From Octopus vulgaris (taxonomy: Eukaryota): a DNA stretch of 64,000 bases. The notes below the pieces were generated by a model. The model saw only the letters and a list, made by a program, of their open reading frames with translations. It was not told the origin of the DNA and made no database searches. Location: contig OX597821.1 in assembly GCA_951406725.2 (NCBI GenBank), positions 70,742,001 to 70,806,000 on the forward strand, in the 5' to 3' direction. A program made the position numbers and the translations under genes. Shown piece after piece: positions 3,161-46,561 of this stretch (position 1 is the first letter of the stretch; every line of letters starts with the position of its first letter).

Positions 3161-4715
3161 AAAAAAAAGCAGCAGTTGGATTAATATCCACTTATGCTGC
3201 AGCCAGAATGACTCCGGCCAGTTTTGAAGGTTGTAATTTAGAGACTATTTCTGGACAACAATCCATTGTTTCCAATACCTTCTGGGCCAGAATTTCGTTA
3301 TTTCTTCAACCGATCATTTCGAACATCTTTATTAGCCTCCATCTTTATTCCTCTTCAGCATCAGCATCACCATCAAATCCGCCACCACCACCACCATCAT
3401 CATCATCATTATTATCACTGTCCCCATCACAAACACCACCATTTTTCCAGTAACCCCTTCCCCGCCTACGCCTTTCTTCTACCTTTATATGGATTATTAC
3501 ATAGAAAGAAGTCTCTATGATAATGGCTGCCATCGTGACGATAAGTTAGCTGCAATTGAAACGCTGTATTATATACTGCCTTTGTGTTGATTCTATTAGC
3601 AGATTATATCGCTTCTAAGATGCCATTATTCTTCATATTCGCAATATGAAATGATAATTTCGTTCCTCTTCTAATACACACCTTTAACCCTTGTTCCTGC
3701 TTCTATCTTTTCCCTCTTCTTCTTTACAATGCCTTCTTATAAAGGGACAATATCGATTTTATTATCAGGAGACACGTGTGAAATCGATTAATTCGACGCC
3801 AATATACAATTGATACCTATCGTATCGACCCCTAATGAAAGGAACCAAATGAGAGAGCCCTTGTCTAGTCCCTCGTTCTACTAAAATAACTATTGTTTAT
3901 CCGATTTTCAAGTCTTTGTATTTTGATAGTTCGATTTTCTTTCGCTTCAAATTTTGTTGAAAAAGAACCAACAAAATGTTCAAGATGCAAAGTGCGACGA
4001 AGCATTTTAATACATCCTAATAGACAGAACTGTTTAGAAATAAGCACGAAAATTAATACAACAGTTATTGTGTGCTCTCAGATGACCAAAACCGGTTTCC
4101 CAAGTTGCAATTTTTTCACTTGCATTACAAGTTCTACTTTCAAGAGCTCTAAGCAAACATTAGGACGATGTATATACACATATATCGGATGCGCGCGCGC
4201 GCGTGTGTCTGTGTATTAGGAATTTCTGCTATTCGAAAATTAGGAACCTGAAACTCAGAGTAACGATTAATGACGTTTCCAGTTTCCATCAGACATAATA
4301 AAATGCTCCTCCATTAATAGCCACAAACTCAGGAGAAAAGTTCTTCAAAGGGAAAAATAAAATATCAATATTTCTCATTAGATATATATTTGGTATATAT
4401 TTCAGTATTGAAGTCATTAAATAATGATTCTGTTAGATTGAAGTCGTATATTTCGGTTCTGCTTCTGCGTCTGCGATATTTTCTCAATAAATTCTGCACT
4501 TCACATTTGTATTTGGTTAGCAAGAATCTTGATGTGAATTCATGAGTTGAAACAAATCCTCTTGTGTCTTTGGTGGTTCATTGCGCTAATAATAACACAT
4601 GCACTGGTTCAAAATCACTTCGCCATTATTAGGCAATTGGTTAAATTTTTAAGTAGCTAACTAATCGAATTTTTCGTTTAATGTGACAGAGAGCAGCTCT
4701 TTAAGACAGAAGGCA

Positions 4716-4758
4716 TGTCAGTGAAGAGGTCGCGTATAGCGACGAAAGGACATTGACA
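4716..4758 (+). ncRNA. Decayed hammerhead motif related to the G3:C8 PLE family
   Basis: TGTCA-GTGAAGA-G-GTCGC gtata GCGAC-GAAA-ggacat-TGACA; same stem I and stem II as the HHR at 30249-30298, but the core has G3.G8. Confidence 0.6.
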
Positions 4759-5907
4759 AAGAAACAACCGATTGATTGTTTAATTGGTACAATAAACAAA
4801 CGATCGATTAGTTAATCGGTTAAATATTGAACCGGTTAACGAACAATGAAGAAGTGGTTTCTAACCTGTGAGTGTGTCATTATTATTGGCTTAATGATCC
4901 TCACAAGACACAACAAAATTTTGCACTGTTTAATGGTAATAAGGAAAACGATTAGTTTTAATGTTCTTTTCAAAACGTTCTGATGCACCAACATTCGCAC
5001 TTTCTGAAATATGAGCCATACTTATTCTATCAGTGTGTTTTGCCGAACCGCTAAGTTGCTGGGGCAGAAGCACATCAACACCGGTTGTTAATTGATGATG
5101 AGGGACAAACACACACACACACAAACACACATACATACACACACACATGCACCCCCCTGTATATATATATTTACAAGAGTTAAGGAATGGAGTAGATAAG
5201 ATCCGGGCTACATATTTTCCATAGCGAGCGGAACCTCGGAAATGGTAAATATCCAAGCGAGGTGTATAGCGCAGGTTACTATTTAGGCCAAGGGTATCTT
5301 GAGTAGATGAAAGTTTTATATTTTCGCAAAGAGGTACATGTCGTAAGACATGGAAGACTCAATCAAAATGTGTAGAGAGCAGAGAAGGAGATTATAAATA
5401 TAGAGAGAAATTAGGATTAAAAGAAGGAAAAGGAAAAAAAAAAACATAACGGAGAGTATTTTAAGCAAGGTTGTTTGACCAATAGTATTCAATAGGGCTA
5501 TTTTGGTCGAATCACAGAAATTAGCAAGGGGAGTGGTATTTGAGAAAAAGATAACGTTGAGGGGAGAGGGTCATTTATGTACTTTCCTTACTGTTTATAA
5601 AGAAGTTTTTTTCTCCTATTCTTCCCTTTAATCCTTATTCTCATTTACATACTTCTCTCTCTCTTTATCTTTCCTTACCATTTATAGAATTTCTTTTTCT
5701 CTTGTTTCACCTGCCTCTCCCCTCCTCCCCTCTTTGTTAACTTACACCTTACTACTTCATATTGTACTGTAAACACGCTCACCGCACACAATATACACTC
5801 CATTAGTAGCCGCCATGACTCTTGCCCATTCTATCTTTCTCCCCCTTGACCAAAAATATTTCTCTACTCTCTCACCACCATATTAACTTTTATATAATAA
5901 TAATAAT

Positions 5908-5938
<31 letters not shown>

Positions 5939-5940
5939 GC

Positions 5941-6014
<74 letters not shown>

Positions 6015-8752
6015 GGACAACAACATGTTCAAAAATAACACAAAGAATTTTTACAGGAAGATAGGAAAAACAGCGTTTACTGCAGGGTCTGTACCATCAA
6101 AAGAAGAAGTGCAGAGATTTTGGAATAAAATCTGGGCAGAAGAAAAAACACACAACGAAAAGGCCCCCTGGATTGACAGAATATCTACAGAACTGGACCC
6201 CTTAGAAGAGCAAAAGTGGGAGGGTGTCAAGGTAGAAGATATAAGATCTGCTCTCAGGAGGTCAAGCAAATGGAAGTCTCCAGGAAAGGATAAAATTCCT
6301 AACTTCTGGCTGAATGCCTTCCCAGAGAGCCATGAACTGCTAACAGAACTGTACAATGATGTTTTGCAACACCCTAGTAGGATGCCTCCTTGGCTAGTTA
6401 ATGGGTTAACATTCCTGCTTCCAAAAAGTGAAGAAACAAATGAACCAAAAAACTATAGACCCATAACCTGCTTAACAACTATGTACAAAACACTAACATC
6501 TGTCCTGACGGAATATACCTATAGTTTTTTAACAGACAGCAGCATATTCCCTAATGAACAGAAAGGATGTAAACGTGGATCCTACGGCTGTAAAGACCAA
6601 CTACTCATCAATAAGATGATCTTAGAAGATTGTCACAAACGACACAAAAACTTATCAATAGCCTGGATAGACTATAAAAAGGCTTTTGATAGCCTACCAC
6701 ATAGCTGGATTAGGAAATGCCTTGAAATGTATAAGATAGCATCAACTCTGCGAAACTTCTTGACTGTAAGTATGAGATCATGGAGAACCACACTAACTCT
6801 GAACAGTGACAGTGAATCCCTAAATGCTGGTGATGTAAAAATTTCGTGTGGCATTTTCCAGGGTGACTCACTGTCACCACTCCTCTTCTGTTTATCCTTA
6901 ATACCTCTCTCAAAGCTGCTCAATGACGCGCAGTACGGGTATAAAATGTTTGATAAAAATATAAATCATCTCGTTTACATGGATGATTTAAAGCTTTTTG
7001 CAAAAAATGATCAACAACTCAAGGGCTTACTAGCGATAGTCAAACAATTCAGTGACGACATCAGAATGCAATTCGGCCTCGATAAATGTGCAAAGGCTAC
7101 CTTTATCAAAGGAAAAATGACAGAAACATCTAACGTTAACCTTGACCAACAGAATGTCATAAAAGAACTAGACCCAGCGGAGAGCTACAAGTACCTAGGG
7201 GTAATTGAAGGGAACGGAATAAGGCATTCAGAGATGAAGGAAAGGATCAGGAGAGAATGCTATCGAAGAGTGAGAGCAATACTCAAGACAGAGCTGAATG
7301 CAAGAAACAGGATCGAAGCAATCAATGCATTAGCTATACCAGTCGTGACTTACAGTTTCAATATTGTTAACTGGTCAATTACTGAAATATGTCAGCTCGA
7401 CAGAAAAATAAGGAAACTGTTGACAATGCATAGAATGCACCACCCTAAGGCAGATACAGAACGACTCTATCTGCCAAGAAAAGAGAGAGGCCGTGGTCTT
7501 TTGCAACTGGCAATAACAATGAAGATTGCTACAATTGGCCTAGACACCTACCTGAAAAACTCTGAGGACTGGATGTTAAAACTTGTCTCAAAACATGAAA
7601 ACAAGAAAGCATCATACTCAGTCACAAAACAGGCAAAGGAATATCTAAGTGAATTCCGAATACAACCAATTTCGGAATTAGAGATAGACATACAAGAAAC
7701 AAGCACAGAAAAAGCTAGGCGCATGAAAACCCGTGCCAAAACTGCGGCCTTAGATATTCTGAATAATAAATGGCAAGAAAAACCTCTCTATGGCAAATAC
7801 CCAAAGAGAGCGAATAATGCAGATATCGACAAAGCCCTGACCCATCAATGGCTAATGGCCTCTGGCTTAAAATCTGAAACAGAGGGGTTTATCATAGCAG
7901 CTCAAGATCAATGCCTACCAACAAGAAACTACCAGGCCAACATATTAAAGATCAGAAGCAGTCCAACGTGTCGTGTATGCAAGCAACAAAATGAAACCAT
8001 TGACCATGTGGTCTCCAAGTGCAGTCTTCTAGCGCCTACAGAGTATCTCAACAGGCACGATAGAGCTGCACAATATATTCACTGGGTAATCTGTAAAAAC
8101 CTGGATTTGCCCCATGAAAAAAACTGGTGGGAACACAAACCACCCCCAGTGCTTGAAAATGACCACATCTCACTCCTCTGGAACTTCACCATTCAAACTG
8201 ACAGGAAGATAGATGCAAATAGGCCAGACATCATATTGAAAGACTTCAAACAAAGAACATGCCTCCTCATTGATATGACTGTCCCAATCGATATAAACGT
8301 ATCTGTCAAGACCTACCAAAAACTGAGCAAATATAAAGATCTTGAAATAGAAATCAGCAAAATGTGGAAGCTGAAGACTAAAACAATACCTGTTGTCATA
8401 GGTGCCCTGGGAATGATAGCAAAAGGGGCTGATAGCTACCTAACTCAGATACCAGGAAACCCAAAAATGGCAGAAGTTCAAAAGATAGTGCTCATGGGAA
8501 CTGCTCATATCCTACGCAAAATACTCTCTATGTAACCTCAAGGTTTAAAACAACCATAATTTTCGGTTTAAAAAAAAAAAAAAAAAAAACTTTTTTTTTT
8601 TTAGACATTCATTAGTACAACATCCCCACCCCCCAAATATATGGCACACTAGGCATAACAACAACATGAACTTCCAACCCTGTTGTCTCTTGAGGTCTCT
8701 GGGTGAGACTTGGAGCCAACTTGTACAAATATAAAGCAAAAGTCAAACATAG
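6015..8752 (+). mobile_element. 5'-truncated R4/Dong-clade non-LTR retrotransposon inserted in (TAA)n
   Basis: (AAT)n directly upstream (to 6014) and downstream (8753-8772); single RT-REL ORF; ~220-bp 3' UTR. Confidence 0.9.
6025..8535 (+). CDS. Reverse transcriptase + CCHC zinc knuckle + restriction-like (REL) endonuclease, 836 aa, uninterrupted
   Basis: YRPITCL, WIDYKKAFDS, GIFQGDSLSPLLF, YMDDLKLF (RT); CRVC...HVVSKC zinc knuckle; RHD, RPDIILKD...LLIDMTVP...K..KY (PD-D/ExK REL domain). Confidence 0.95.
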   Translation: MFKNNTKNFYRKIGKTAFTAGSVPSKEEVQRFWNKIWAEEKTHNEKAPWIDRISTELDPLEEQKWEGVKVEDIRSALRRSSKWKSPGKDKIPNFWLNAFPESHELLTELYNDVLQHPSRMPPWLVNGLTFLLPKSEETNEPKNYRPITCLTTMYKTLTSVLTEYTYSFLTDSSIFPNEQKGCKRGSYGCKDQLLINKMILEDCHKRHKNLSIAWIDYKKAFDSLPHSWIRKCLEMYKIASTLRNFLTVSMRSWRTTLTLNSDSESLNAGDVKISCGIFQGDSLSPLLFCLSLIPLSKLLNDAQYGYKMFDKNINHLVYMDDLKLFAKNDQQLKGLLAIVKQFSDDIRMQFGLDKCAKATFIKGKMTETSNVNLDQQNVIKELDPAESYKYLGVIEGNGIRHSEMKERIRRECYRRVRAILKTELNARNRIEAINALAIPVVTYSFNIVNWSITEICQLDRKIRKLLTMHRMHHPKADTERLYLPRKERGRGLLQLAITMKIATIGLDTYLKNSEDWMLKLVSKHENKKASYSVTKQAKEYLSEFRIQPISELEIDIQETSTEKARRMKTRAKTAALDILNNKWQEKPLYGKYPKRANNADIDKALTHQWLMASGLKSETEGFIIAAQDQCLPTRNYQANILKIRSSPTCRVCKQQNETIDHVVSKCSLLAPTEYLNRHDRAAQYIHWVICKNLDLPHEKNWWEHKPPPVLENDHISLLWNFTIQTDRKIDANRPDIILKDFKQRTCLLIDMTVPIDINVSVKTYQKLSKYKDLEIEISKMWKLKTKTIPVVIGALGMIAKGADSYLTQIPGNPKMAEVQKIVLMGTAHILRKILSM

Positions 8753-26159: not shown

Positions 26160-26215
<56 letters not shown>

Positions 26216-26270
26216 GGAGATGTACTCGCATAGCAGGTAATTTGATCTGAGATCGTGTGCTGAAACGAAA

Positions 26271-27241
26271 ACAATTGCAGCGTGGGAGGTGTTTATAAGC
26301 CATTTAAGAAACACACAAAAGCCGTTCGATTCACTCCAACATTTAAGTTTAATTTGTCAAAATATTTTCGTCGCTAAAATCCGCGACCTGTTCACTGACA
26401 AAGTCCGTGCTGCATCTAAGAAAGTAACAGTTAGTTCGTCATATATATGTATGTACGTATGTATGTGTGTATGTATGCATACATGTGTGTATGTATGTAC
26501 GTATTCATGTCCGCACATACGCCTGTGTATGCATGTATGTATGTATGTATGTATATATGTATGTGTGTGTATAAGCACGCACATACACTCTATAAAACAT
26601 AAAGTTATAAACCTGTAGCGATGGATGGATGTAGAGTGACCACTCATCACAACGCTATCAAATTTCAACTCCCTACGGCCGAGGCTAGAAAGTGAATTTA
26701 TGACGCTTGCTCACAAGAACTATACCCTAAAATCTATTATCAGATTTTTATCTCTATATCACAGAACTAATGTTTTACTATTGTTCGTATGTATGTATGT
26801 ATGTGCGTATGTATGTATGTATGTATGTATGTATGTATGTATGTATGTATGTATGTATGTATGTATGTACATACGTACGCATGTGCGTATGTATGTATAC
26901 GCGCCCGTATGCATGTGCCCATGTATGTGTGTGTGTACATGTACGTGCGTATGTACGTGTGTATGCCCATACGTAGGTATGTATGTATGTTTGTATTCAT
27001 GTGCTACGTATGTATGTGAGTGTCTAGGAGAATGGGCAGATGTGTCCGTGAGAGTGTGTACATGTGTATGTGTATGTGAACGTATGTCCGTGTACTGGCA
27101 TGTGTCCGTCCAAGTTGTGTACATGACTGTTACTTAGCTGAAGGTTGTATACATATTTACATATATGTTTGTATAGACGCACACACATATATATATATGT
27201 GTGTGGGTGTGTGTTTGTTCCTCTCATCGTCGTCTAACCGT
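26271..27241. repeat. Left arm (971 bp) of long inverted repeat = 3' pLTR
   Basis: Reverse complement of 29414-30380; mirrored ORF-track peptides; 4-bp length difference consistent with one (TATG) unit. Confidence 0.95.
26353..26402 (-). ncRNA. Minimal hammerhead ribozyme, G3:C8 core variant (sense to the PLE ORF)
   Basis: TTTGTCA-GTGAACA-G-GTCGC ggatttta GCGAC-GAA-AATATT-T-TGACAAA: 7-bp stem I, 5-bp stem II, palindromic stem III. Confidence 0.8.
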
Positions 27242-27373
27242 GAATGGGTACAACGCCTAGGTGCGACTGTTCGTATCAAACAACGTCTGCTCATACCGTT
27301 GTATATAACTGCACATACGCATTGCAACCTGTATGTAAGGACTACAGGTGAAAGGGAGAGAGAGAGAGGGTGG

Positions 27374-29458
27374 TTATAGAATAGTCCTTCTGAATGGGAT
27401 CTGGATGTTATTCCATTCGGACTTTCGGTTGAGAGTAGGTTTGTATTCTTGTATACAAACAGCTTCTGTGACCTGTCTCAACATTGCATCGGTGGGATGT
27501 GTAGATAGGATGTTCAACTTAAGCTCCCCTAAGGATCCCTTGTGGCAGTCTACAGCATGTTGGTAGAAGATGGAGTTTGGCTTCCTTTCAATGTAGTTGT
27601 CCAGGTGTTCTTTGAACCTATCATTGATGCTTCTAGAGGTCTCACCTATGTATGACTCCGGGTTAGCCGCGCAAGCTCCCTCCTGGCACTTAATCTGGTA
27701 TACAGTGCCCTTGGTTTTACAATTTACGTGTGGATTTGTCGAACACACTGCACAATTACTCTGACAGGTGATTCTATCAAATGGATATGATCTGCATAAT
27801 GCCGATTTGATAGTCCTACCTGTCTTTTCTACAACTTTAACTTTTAGGCCCGTAGTGCGCAGGACTTTCTTGAATGCCTTACTTAGCTCGTTCATAGGTG
27901 TGGCGTCAACGAACATCACTCCGTGAAATCTCCTGTTATCGTACCAAGTAACGTTTCTCATCTTTTTGTTGGTGTCCCTCTCTAACCTATTCCAGAACTT
28001 GTTGCGGTACAGGGGGCATATACCGTTTTCGTCGTTCCCTAGAATGCGTTCGAATCTAGCTTTCGCTCCTTTGTACACCCTGACTCTATCGTCTTGTGTG
28101 TATCCGGAACGTTGCATTCGGAATATGTAGTGCTGGATGTGTTGTTGTCGTTCTTGTGGTTGGCATAGTGGTGATACATTCCTCATTACTCTAACTAAGT
28201 CTGCCACTAGGATGTTGAGTTTGGCAGTATCCGACACAGCTGAGTCACTACGGATTACTAGTGGATTAGCCATCGGTTTCTGATAGTGTGAGTGGAGTAT
28301 ACATGGTTTAATGGTACCATTAACTATAGCGTCTTCCATCCATAGCTCAGTATCTAGGACGGGTAATCGTTTACTGGGGTGTCTAGAGGGGTAGTCTATG
28401 GTAAGTTTTATACTGCTGTGGATAGAGTCAGCTATGTGTTGTATAGATGTCATCACCTGTTCTTCACTTGGTAGAGGGCCCATAACTGTGTCTGTATTAC
28501 ATTTCACAACAAGGTTAATGTCGTCGACGTAACGAGAGTACATAGCCAAGTGGATGTTACGGTTTGCTAGGCACTGTTTAAAACGCTTGTCCCACCATAC
28601 CATGAAGAGGTTAGCAACGTCACCGGCGATCCCCACTCCAATAGCACCGCCTTTCGTTTGCTTATACAGTTTGTTGTCAAATTTAAAAATATGTGTTTTT
28701 AGCGTAAATCTCAGGCTGACACCGATGGCATGTGCGATGGTGGTTCTAATATCGTGTGCACTTGAGGGTGGGTAGTCCGGCTTTGTCCATCCCTGCCAAC
28801 GCTCACAGTGAGTCTTCCTGTAAGCCGAGGTAATGGTAGGTGGTCTACCGCGTTTGTTACGGGTGGGACAAGCATATAGAAGGTTATTGCGCGACAGGTA
28901 TTCATTGGTACACGTCAGGGCCAGGAAGAGCCCTAGTTCATATACATCCACATTCTTAAATATCATACCACTCTCACTAACTATTTCTATACATTTATCG
29001 ACAGCAAAGTCTATATCGATGGAGGGGTATAGTGATACCACATCCATGCTACCCACGATGTGGTTCTTGAGGTCACACGTGTTGTTGCATTCGCGGATCC
29101 TGCTAAGGAGGTCCTCAGTACTGTCACATACATCTGCAGATAGTTCTATTAACGGTCGTAGGAATTGTGAGAGAAAGTATGATATTTTGTGGTTGTTTGC
29201 ATTGTTGGCACCACAAACGGGTCGGGTGGGTGGCCCAAGTATATTGTCCGTGTGGCTCTTGTGATCTTTGCGAAGGCCATATAGGGGTGGGATTTCGTTG
29301 TTGGTGGTTAAGAAGTTGTTAGCTGTGCGCTTCTCCGACTGGAGAATTATACTCCACATCCCCATGTGAGCATTGACGATCTTTTCGTTCTCGATATATT
29401 CGAGTGTTAGACGACGGTTAGACGACGATGAGAGGAACAAACACACACCCACACACAT
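27374..29458 (-). CDS. PLE reverse transcriptase + C-terminal GIY-YIG endonuclease (694 aa; first ~15 aa come from the inverted arm)
   Basis: PPLYGLRKDHK, RPVCG, MDVVSLYPSI, GGAIGVGIAGDVANLFM, RYVDD, LPVLD; Cys linker CQSNCAVC; GTVYQIKC..C...YIGETSRSINDRFKEH...H...E..PTLN. Confidence 0.93.
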   Translation of the reverse strand: MCVGVCLFLSSSSNRRLTLEYIENEKIVNAHMGMWSIILQSEKRTANNFLTTNNEIPPLYGLRKDHKSHTDNILGPPTRPVCGANNANNHKISYFLSQFLRPLIELSADVCDSTEDLLSRIRECNNTCDLKNHIVGSMDVVSLYPSIDIDFAVDKCIEIVSESGMIFKNVDVYELGLFLALTCTNEYLSRNNLLYACPTRNKRGRPPTITSAYRKTHCERWQGWTKPDYPPSSAHDIRTTIAHAIGVSLRFTLKTHIFKFDNKLYKQTKGGAIGVGIAGDVANLFMVWWDKRFKQCLANRNIHLAMYSRYVDDINLVVKCNTDTVMGPLPSEEQVMTSIQHIADSIHSSIKLTIDYPSRHPSKRLPVLDTELWMEDAIVNGTIKPCILHSHYQKPMANPLVIRSDSAVSDTAKLNILVADLVRVMRNVSPLCQPQERQQHIQHYIFRMQRSGYTQDDRVRVYKGAKARFERILGNDENGICPLYRNKFWNRLERDTNKKMRNVTWYDNRRFHGVMFVDATPMNELSKAFKKVLRTTGLKVKVVEKTGRTIKSALCRSYPFDRITCQSNCAVCSTNPHVNCKTKGTVYQIKCQEGACAANPESYIGETSRSINDRFKEHLDNYIERKPNSIFYQHAVDCHKGSLGELKLNILSTHPTDAMLRQVTEAVCIQEYKPTLNRKSEWNNIQIPFRRTIL

Positions 29459-30375
29459 ATATATATATGTGTGTGCGTCTATACAAACATATATGTAAAT
29501 ATGTATACAACCTTCAGCTAAGTAACAGTCATGTACACAACTTGGACGGACACATGCCAGTACACGGACATACGTTCACATACACATACACATGTACACA
29601 CTCTCACGGACACATCTGCCCATTCTCCTAGACACTCACATACATACGTAGCACATGAATACAAACATACATACATACCTACGTATGGGCATACACACGT
29701 ACATACGCACGTACATGTACACACACACATACATGGGCACATGCATACGGGCGCGTATACATACATACGCACATGCGTACGTATGTACATACATACATAC
29801 ATACATACATACATACATACATACATACATACATACATACATACGCACATACATACATACATACGAACAATAGTAAAACATTAGTTCTGTGATATAGAGA
29901 TAAAAATCTGATAATAGATTTTAGGGTATAGTTCTTGTGAGCAAGCGTCATAAATTCACTTTCTAGCCTCGGCCGTAGGGAGTTGAAATTTGATAGCGTT
30001 GTGATGAGTGGTCACTCTACATCCATCCATCGCTACAGGTTTATAACTTTATGTTTTATAGAGTGTATGTGCGTGCTTATACACACACATACATATATAC
30101 ATACATACATACATACATGCATACACAGGCGTATGTGCGGACATGAATACGTACATACATACACACATGTATGCATACATACACACATACATACGTACAT
30201 ACATATATATGACGAACTAACTGTTACTTTCTTAGATGCAGCACGGACTTTGTCAGTGAACAGGTCGCGGATTTTAGCGACGAAAATATTTTGACAAATT
30301 AAACTTAAATGTTGGAGTGAATCGAACGGCTTTTGTGTGTTTCTTAAATGGCTTATAAACACCTCCCACGCTGCA

Positions 30376-30380
<5 letters not shown>
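29414..30380. repeat. Right arm (967 bp) of long inverted repeat = inverted 5' pLTR
   Basis: Reverse complement of 26271-27241. Confidence 0.95.
30249..30298 (+). ncRNA. G3:C8 hammerhead, second copy (antisense to the ORF)
   Basis: Identical to 26353-26402 in the opposite orientation. Confidence 0.8.
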
Positions 30381-45675: not shown

Positions 45676-46363
45676 ATAGAATTTTATTTCGTGTTTGACA
45701 ATGTGAAATGATTTTGAGTAATTGTGAGAGACATTGGGGAGAAAGTTTGACTGTGGCACAGCCTCCTCAAATTGTGTCACGTTGATTCAATGTTAGAATC
45801 TCGTTACGGATATACTTATATTCGGATCACACTGCGACCACATACTCTAATTTAACAAGCAACTATTTTGAGTTCAAGGCTGGAATCTGCAAAACATTCC
45901 CAAGTTTTTAGTGATCTGTTTCCTACAATCTGACTATTCTTCAGTTTCGATTAACCATAATAGATGCATAAAGATGGATTAGTAACTTGATTTAGGCTCC
46001 GGCTAAATAAATGTCATTAGGATTCTTTTTTAAATTGCCATCTATGTATTATACTTAAAATATACACACTACCGCTAGTCTAGTTACTGCGGTATTTTTC
46101 TAAGGATAACATCTCTTATGGAGTAGCCATGTTAAAAACACAGTAGATATCATAGAGAACCGAAACTTCGTCCCAGTATCGGCCAATAAGTGCGCCAGAT
46201 GTATTTCAGCAAATTTAATTTTGTGGTTAACTGCGAGTATGCACCATTGAAATAGTCCGTAGATGCTGAAACGTAGCTGCTGCTCTCCCTGGCCGCTGCT
46301 GGGACCAACATCCGTCTTTATCTAATGTTTATTGTTTTTAATACAAGTCTTAAAGAGAATTAC

Positions 46364-46561
46364 GGTGATGTACTTGCATAGCAAGTGACCTGATCTGAGA
46401 TCGTGTGCTGGAACAAAAACAATTGCAGCATAGAAGGTGTTTATAAGCCATTTAAGAAACACACAAAATCCGATAGATTCACTTCAACATTTAAATTTAA
46501 TTTGCCAAAATATTTTCGTCGCTTTGAGACAGCGACCTGTCCACTGACAAAATTCCGTGCT
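46364..46561 (-). mobile_element. Solo terminal pLTR of the 26-30 kb PLE family, with G3:C8 HHR (46501-46551)
   Basis: Direct homologue of 26216-26412; minus strand TTTGTCA-GTGGACA-G-GTCGCT gtctcaa AGCGAC-GAA-AATATT-T-TGGCAAA. Confidence 0.88.

Follow-up and report, generated by a model that had tools for sequence, protein, structure and literature searches.

On the reverse strand of the window analysed here, a 64,000-nucleotide stretch of the Octopus vulgaris genome (contig OX597821.1, positions 70,742,001 to 70,806,000), a 5'-truncated Penelope-like open reading frame (ORF; 27374..29410) is followed by a microsatellite-rich 3' pseudo-LTR (pLTR; 26213..27373) that carries a hammerhead motif in sense orientation. 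The ORF domains, a reverse transcriptase (RT) with a YVDD motif, a CX3CX2C linker, and a GIY-YIG-type endonuclease at the C-terminus, were assigned from motifs and homologues. A direct Pfam search of the ORF gave no match, and PF01541, which we take to be the GIY-YIG family, is present in one homologue. By these motifs, a single ORF joins an RT, a CX2-5CxxC linker, and a GIY-YIG domain at the C-terminus, the arrangement of EN+ Penelope-like elements (PLEs). On the other side of the ORF lies an inverted 5' copy of the pLTR (29414..30380, forward strand; 94% over 1145 bases, flanking repeats included), within which a third hammerhead copy (30249-30298, forward strand) has an identical core and identical stems. 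Each insertion has the first 30 codons of the ORF as its 3' end (26213..26303, reverse strand); this segment is open from an ATG at 26303, 92 nt downstream of hammerhead position G3, and resembles by eye the ORF start of a sister family. Beyond the element 3' end, 28 of 30 loci have a (TA)n repeat.

The domain order, the inverted 5' pLTR, the tail-like second 3' end, and the (TA)n targeting are shared with Neptune-clade EN+ PLEs (PMC8557442). The host appears to be a Neptune-like EN+ PLE, its clade read from the linker motif alone and its RT tree containing no reference Neptune, Nematis, or Poseidon sequences. The best homologue of the ORF carries an Octopus vulgaris label and clusters with a sister family of the same genome. 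All 40 scored candidates match the full 218 bases at about 100%, and 29 other loci that were inspected yielded one single mismatch to the window sequence; the family is young. The near-identical copies, the RT ORF, and the inverted pLTR copy agree with the young Penelope pLTR that a preliminary description of this DNA had proposed as the setting of the motif.

The motif and its exchanged core pair

The motif at 26353..26402 (reverse strand) reads as a minimal type I hammerhead by fold, descriptor, and covariation, with G3 (26395) opposite C8 (26390). The 5' strand of stem I (26402-26396) forms 7 bp with the 3' strand (26359-26353) and leads into the core GUGAACA (G3-A9, 26395-26389). Next come an extra G (26388) between A9 and G10.1, typical of PLE hammerheads, a 5-bp stem II (26387-26383 with 26374-26370) with an 8-nt loop, G12-A14 (26369-26367), the palindromic stem III AAUAUU (26366-26361), and U17 (26360), with cleavage predicted between 26360 and 26359. 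Except for the extra G, which it does not mention, this is the architecture claimed in the preliminary description, and sequence, fold, and descriptor bear it out. Stems I and II surround the core in a three-way junction, U4, G5, A6, A9, G12, A13, A14, A15.1-U16.1, and H17 are all present, and the triplet UUU falls under the NUH rule (PMC8495972). The literal consensus C3-U4-G5-A6-N7-G8-A9 is departed from, with G3 and C8 instead, and the 3:8 pair is Watson-Crick, as G:C.

The minimum-energy fold of the motif consists of stems I and II (z -3.4; equalled by 1 of 200 shuffles), and a strict G3:C8 descriptor gives 2 matches in the window versus none in 200 order-1 Markov resamples. Standard tools pass it by, as had been anticipated for searches of the CUGANGA type: Rfam returned no hammerhead on 26230-26430 (201 nt) at E values up to 10, and for the whole window the 150 matches listed of 508 are microsatellite-driven miRNA matches, with no hammerhead among them.

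The closest known counterparts are the min-HHRs of metazoan PLEs (Cervera and De la Pena 2014, PMC4209133), which likewise lie on the sense strand of a pLTR, have an extra nucleotide between 9 and 10.1 (nucleotide 9.1), G10.1-C11.1, and a palindromic stem III, and occur in thousands of copies, mostly single and truncated. Unlike them, the octopus motif has a G3:C8 core and a stem I of 7 bp rather than 4-5. The natural core pairs given in the portions of that report considered here are C3-G8 and U3-A8 only, and the four GUGANCA strings are absent from the searchable text of its supplement, a search that covered the files other than file 1.

Further copies occur in the window. A short decayed copy of an older subfamily (46361..46561, reverse strand) contains a hammerhead at 46501-46551, which the preliminary description had offered as a paralogue indicating selection on structure. 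G3 and C8 are indeed kept there; the selection argument was rejected because the core reads GUGGACA (A6G) and the extra, sixth stem II pair rests on a letter found in 1 of 100 family copies listed. At 4713-4762 (forward strand), a decayed copy from an old family in which C3:G8 prevails has stem II as in the G3:C8 family and reads G3/G8. An open 882-aa frame at 5887-8535 (forward strand), with RVT_1 and a weak zf-RVT match, belongs to a non-LTR retrotransposon unrelated to the hammerhead.

Core state across the family and its relatives

When the eight core letters may vary freely, the family pattern finds 6,131 copies (control 0), and among 100 of these listed and read by hand the exact core occurs in 88, G3 in 98, and C8 in 96. 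G3:C8 is the family norm, and the conservation of G3/C8 and of stem pairing on which the preliminary description had staked its claim is present, the stems themselves covarying. Three subfamilies have G3:C8 in common: a young one (loop of 8 nt), a middle one (9 nt), and an old one, whose stem II has 6 bp and a 4-nt loop. Across them, stem III lengths differ and N7 varies, with U4, G5, A6, A9, and GAAA fixed. The old-subfamily pattern, which required C8, has 11 matches, of which the eight in the old group read G3 in five, A3 in two, and T3 in one. In about 1,800 copies, a stem I change preserves a U-G wobble. Four runs, labelled as three other organisms, yielded contigs that contain the stretch, with no variant listed at position 3 or 8 at a 5% share.

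G8 occurs in 169 family copies. The first 100 listed are all G3:G8, with no canonical C3:G8 ancestor of the family among them. About 25 of these 100 cluster, near-identical, on one contig at about 1.2-10.6 Mb, which would reflect local duplication or a short-lived source copy.

At the homologous site, a sister PLE from this genome (RT identity 64%) reads C3:G8, and its stems I and II have changed in a compensated manner. Its pattern has 4,967 matches (control 4), the older copies carrying A9 and a young subfamily A9C. The sister family is very young and includes numerous ORFs, nearly identical to one another, of about 1,310 aa; its hammerheads lie at L084:4883-4925 and L085:7384-7434. An older family shares the stem II and inner stem I letters; among its 16 pattern matches, C3 stands in seven and G8 in nine, and the remainder look decayed. 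In metagenome relatives, the motif lies behind the ORF in four of nine loci, as C3:G8 in L141, L142, and L147 and as U3:A8 with C9 in L143. The L142 copy (4965-5018) has C3:G8, the 15.1-16.1 pair turned round to U15.1-A16.1, and a stem III with another palindrome. No motif was found at L144, L145, L146, or L148, of which L144 and L145 stop about 200 nt past the ORF match; one weak match at L149 was set aside, and the viral contigs searched held no relative of the element. The presence of A9C in the active sister subfamily, and of C9 in L143, means that the clade tolerates core departures.

A quick 20-row RT tree places the element as sister to the C3:G8 family (SH-aLRT 100) and nests it among C3:G8 relatives, so G3:C8 is the derived state. 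The 3:8 swap is both derived and compensated, since the sister family and three of the four motif-bearing metagenome relatives are C3:G8 and stems I-III covary. RNAalifold recovers stems I and II unaided from eight representatives. Once 3:8 and the palindrome are included, both sides have changed in 12 of 14 pairs and none of 500 shuffles attains the score, a result obtained by pair counts on hand-picked related rows and with a shuffle control that ignores relatedness. The 3:8 pair is Watson-Crick in all eight representatives (CG in five, GC in two, UA in one) and is paired in 13 of 14 rows of a second set; the changes at 15.1:16.1 in relatives are likewise compensated. The 3:8 covariation amounts to two independent events, one of which (L143) comes from a single contig. 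It is this covariation between families that upholds the earlier claim of a compensated G3:C8 core and that is the real evidence of selection.

These observations bear on the view that the motif is a catalytically dead relic, the swap having drifted to fixation in a single master lineage and the element transposing without cleavage. A relic of this kind would fit A9C in an active sister subfamily as well as the G8 copies with their G3:G8 cluster, and it is consistent with PLEs that thrive without canonical hammerheads, as Naiad elements do (PMC8557442). We consider it unlikely: the catalytic tertiary pair is exactly what two transversions restored, the invariant core letters stayed fixed over three subfamilies whose loops changed, and the relatives' changes at 3:8 and 15.1:16.1 were compensated too.

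Compensated change of the 3:8 tertiary pair has natural precedent in the U3-A8 core variants (Perreault 2011, PMC3088659), including those of Schistosoma Cercyon PLEs (PMC4209133). U3-A8 is reached by two transitions, with a possible U-G wobble route, whereas G3:C8 takes two transversions, and its direct routes would lead through a G-G or C-C mismatch. The same core letters have been engineered. C3G/G8C gives partial rescue of cleavage (PMC8495972), a full double-mutant scan found the G:C swap to be the sole rescue in that core region (PMC9901934), and C3G/G8C partly restores the hammerhead of an Anolis Poseidon PLE, which cleaves only with its protein (PMC11167929). Rescue of cleavage by swapping the pair, as stated in the preliminary description, is thus published. 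G3-C8 also appears as a lab variant in PMC3884650. In contrast to these laboratory constructs, the octopus family, which has amplified recently, carries the swap as its wild type. Natural G3-C8 was found nowhere in the literature compared, whose scope did not extend to Lunse et al. 2016 and Przybilski and Hammann 2007; term look-ups in PMC11014351 and PMC6257768 returned no relevant text. What appears to be new here, for a predicted ribozyme, is a family-wide compensated G3:C8 core in nature, with laboratory G3-C8 rescue and natural U3-A8 already known.

The putative RNA 5' end and the predicted cleavage site

Copy starts were taken from 60 of the first 81 listed places, with 20 in head-to-head pairs and one other excluded. 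Upstream pLTR similarity ends at most 26 nt from G3 in 52 of the 60, one of which resumes beyond a deletion and seven of which, with a single fold-back junction in common, are not independent of one another. Exactly 22 nt upstream of G3, 11 of the 60 come to an end, and seven of these 11 are preceded by a non-genomic G (binomial P 0.001-0.008). Cap-derived G addition is a known source of such residues, and we read this end as the capped RNA 5' end, at 26417, with a leader spanning 26403..26417 (reverse strand). In the seven fold-back copies (L175, L198-L201, L203, and L217), the junction upstream of the motif is identical, which points to a short inverted, non-autonomous element amplified as a unit. 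Separately, L046, L047, and L091 belong to a canonical hammerhead family of this genome that is unrelated to the G3:C8 one; its stem II loop is long, its stem III is longer, and in L046 and L047 it occurs in head-to-head pairs. Directly after the putative RNA 5' end, an AUG opens a 7-codon frame (26417-26392, reverse strand) whose stop is formed by core U4-G5-A6.

The leader start is initiator-like and also splice-acceptor-like, and a tiny spliced exon is the alternative to a transcription start at 26417. A transcription start is preferred because the pLTR has no consensus 5' donor and no splice joint is listed in four contig sets (contigs, which show neither ends nor strands). The same surroundings could suggest that G3 and C8 are kept for something other than catalysis, as a splice-site-like signal or for protein recognition near the RNA 5' end. 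A pyrimidine run leads to an AG that G3 completes, C8 sits inside a CAG-GU donor-like word, a branch-point-like word and a YAG stand just upstream of the leader, and in D. virilis an intron end abuts helix I (PMC4209133). We regard such non-catalytic retention as very improbable, given the pLTR without a consensus donor and the contig sets without a joint; it also leaves unexplained that the changes at the two positions yielded a Watson-Crick pair.

No peak of copy starts marks the predicted cleavage site, where 2 of 33 TA-abutting copies begin (read by hand). A letter other than U17 precedes the predicted 3' product in 118 copies, a count whose control is spoiled by a subfamily variant. Among 30 of the 118 that were inspected, a script assigned 18 as beginning at the site, nine as point changes, and three as fold-backs, and three of the 18 were misclassed by eye. 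Since the copies whose similarity ends near G3 all span the cleavage site and the TA-abutting ones show no start peak there, the templates were mostly uncleaved, as has also been reported for the Anolis PLE (PMC11167929). Uncleaved templates are a further point in favour of a dead relic.

Folding, mechanism, and meaning

By computed energies, the monomer with a closed stem III reaches -7.9 kcal/mol versus -13.3 kcal/mol when open, and a double hammerhead reaches -27.2 kcal/mol versus -26.6 kcal/mol for two open monomers, a gain of about 0.6 kcal/mol. Because stem III of the monomer cannot be closed at a reasonable energy and the dimer is marginal, a partner, a protein, or both are likely to be needed, and cleavage is predicted to be slow and is likely dimer- or protein-assisted. 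The palindromes are perfect from 15.1 in six of eight representatives, with differing sequences, and the stem III of the sister family is an imperfect palindrome. This pairing, together with the report that min-HHR dimers cleave in vitro and monomers do not (PMC4209133), fits the dimer suggested in the preliminary description. One alternative is that the monomer cleaves upon binding of the element's own RT/EN protein, the palindrome being incidental; the protein requirement of the Anolis hammerhead (PMC11167929), the small dimer gain, and the stability of stems I and II in the inferred 5' context (pair probabilities 0.7-1.0) speak for it. That perfect palindromes recur in differing sequences, and that min-HHRs cleave as dimers, makes it improbable in our judgement.

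The reading we favour, and hold to be rather better than an even bet, is a hammerhead of a Neptune-like Penelope family with G:C at 3:8, which would self-cleave slowly after U17 with the help of a second hammerhead or a protein. G12 and the 2'-OH of position 8, which act in hammerhead catalysis (PMC6155905), would do so here as well, with G3 positioning C8. The element RNA would start, capped, about 22 nt upstream of G3, and cutting would strip a capped 58-nt fragment from the region before the start codon. The transcript of a tandem locus would contain a further hammerhead, that of the downstream pLTR; paired through AAUAUU, the two might excise an RNA of unit length, which is perhaps re-ligated. 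As cleavage is likely slow, most RNA would be reverse-transcribed uncut, and synthesis starting internally, within the first codons of the ORF, and running as far back as the cap would yield the thousands of short copies. Against an active ribozyme stand the sister's A9C, the G3:G8 copies, the missing cleavage footprint, and insertion without cleavage in vitro, seen for the Anolis PLE, whose insertion is unaffected by hammerhead mutants (PMC11167929).

A wider interpretation is possible, if doubtful: that the G3:C8 hammerheads, roughly 9,000 copies, are a natural family with catalytic activity, which got across a valley of two transversions at the general-acid pair and which, directly behind the cap, acts as a slowed switch between capped RNA (translated or templating) and decapped or circular RNA. 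If this were true, selection on PLE hammerheads, whose function has been called unclear and for which parasitism has been raised (PMC8557442), would favour tuned catalysis, and current descriptors would fail to see a class of hammerheads in genomes. The C3-G8 pair was established by laboratory swaps, to which a wild-type swapped family would be the natural counterpart, and compensated change in a purely tertiary catalytic pair would amount to genomic evidence for selection of the active fold. A ready paired test is offered by two sister families that share a genome, one C3:G8 (A9C present or absent), the other G3:C8.

The counts also concern ribozyme surveys, including the one in PMC8557442, which used a cuganga descriptor that would overlook the G3:C8 motif. 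A G3/C8 pattern has 11,285 matches versus 2,013 in a reversed control, and the same pattern with C3/G8 has 2,768 versus 998. With an excess over control of about 9,300 for G3/C8 versus about 1,770 for C3/G8 (the sister's A9C copies not counted), CUGANGA descriptors and Rfam would undercount ribozymes.
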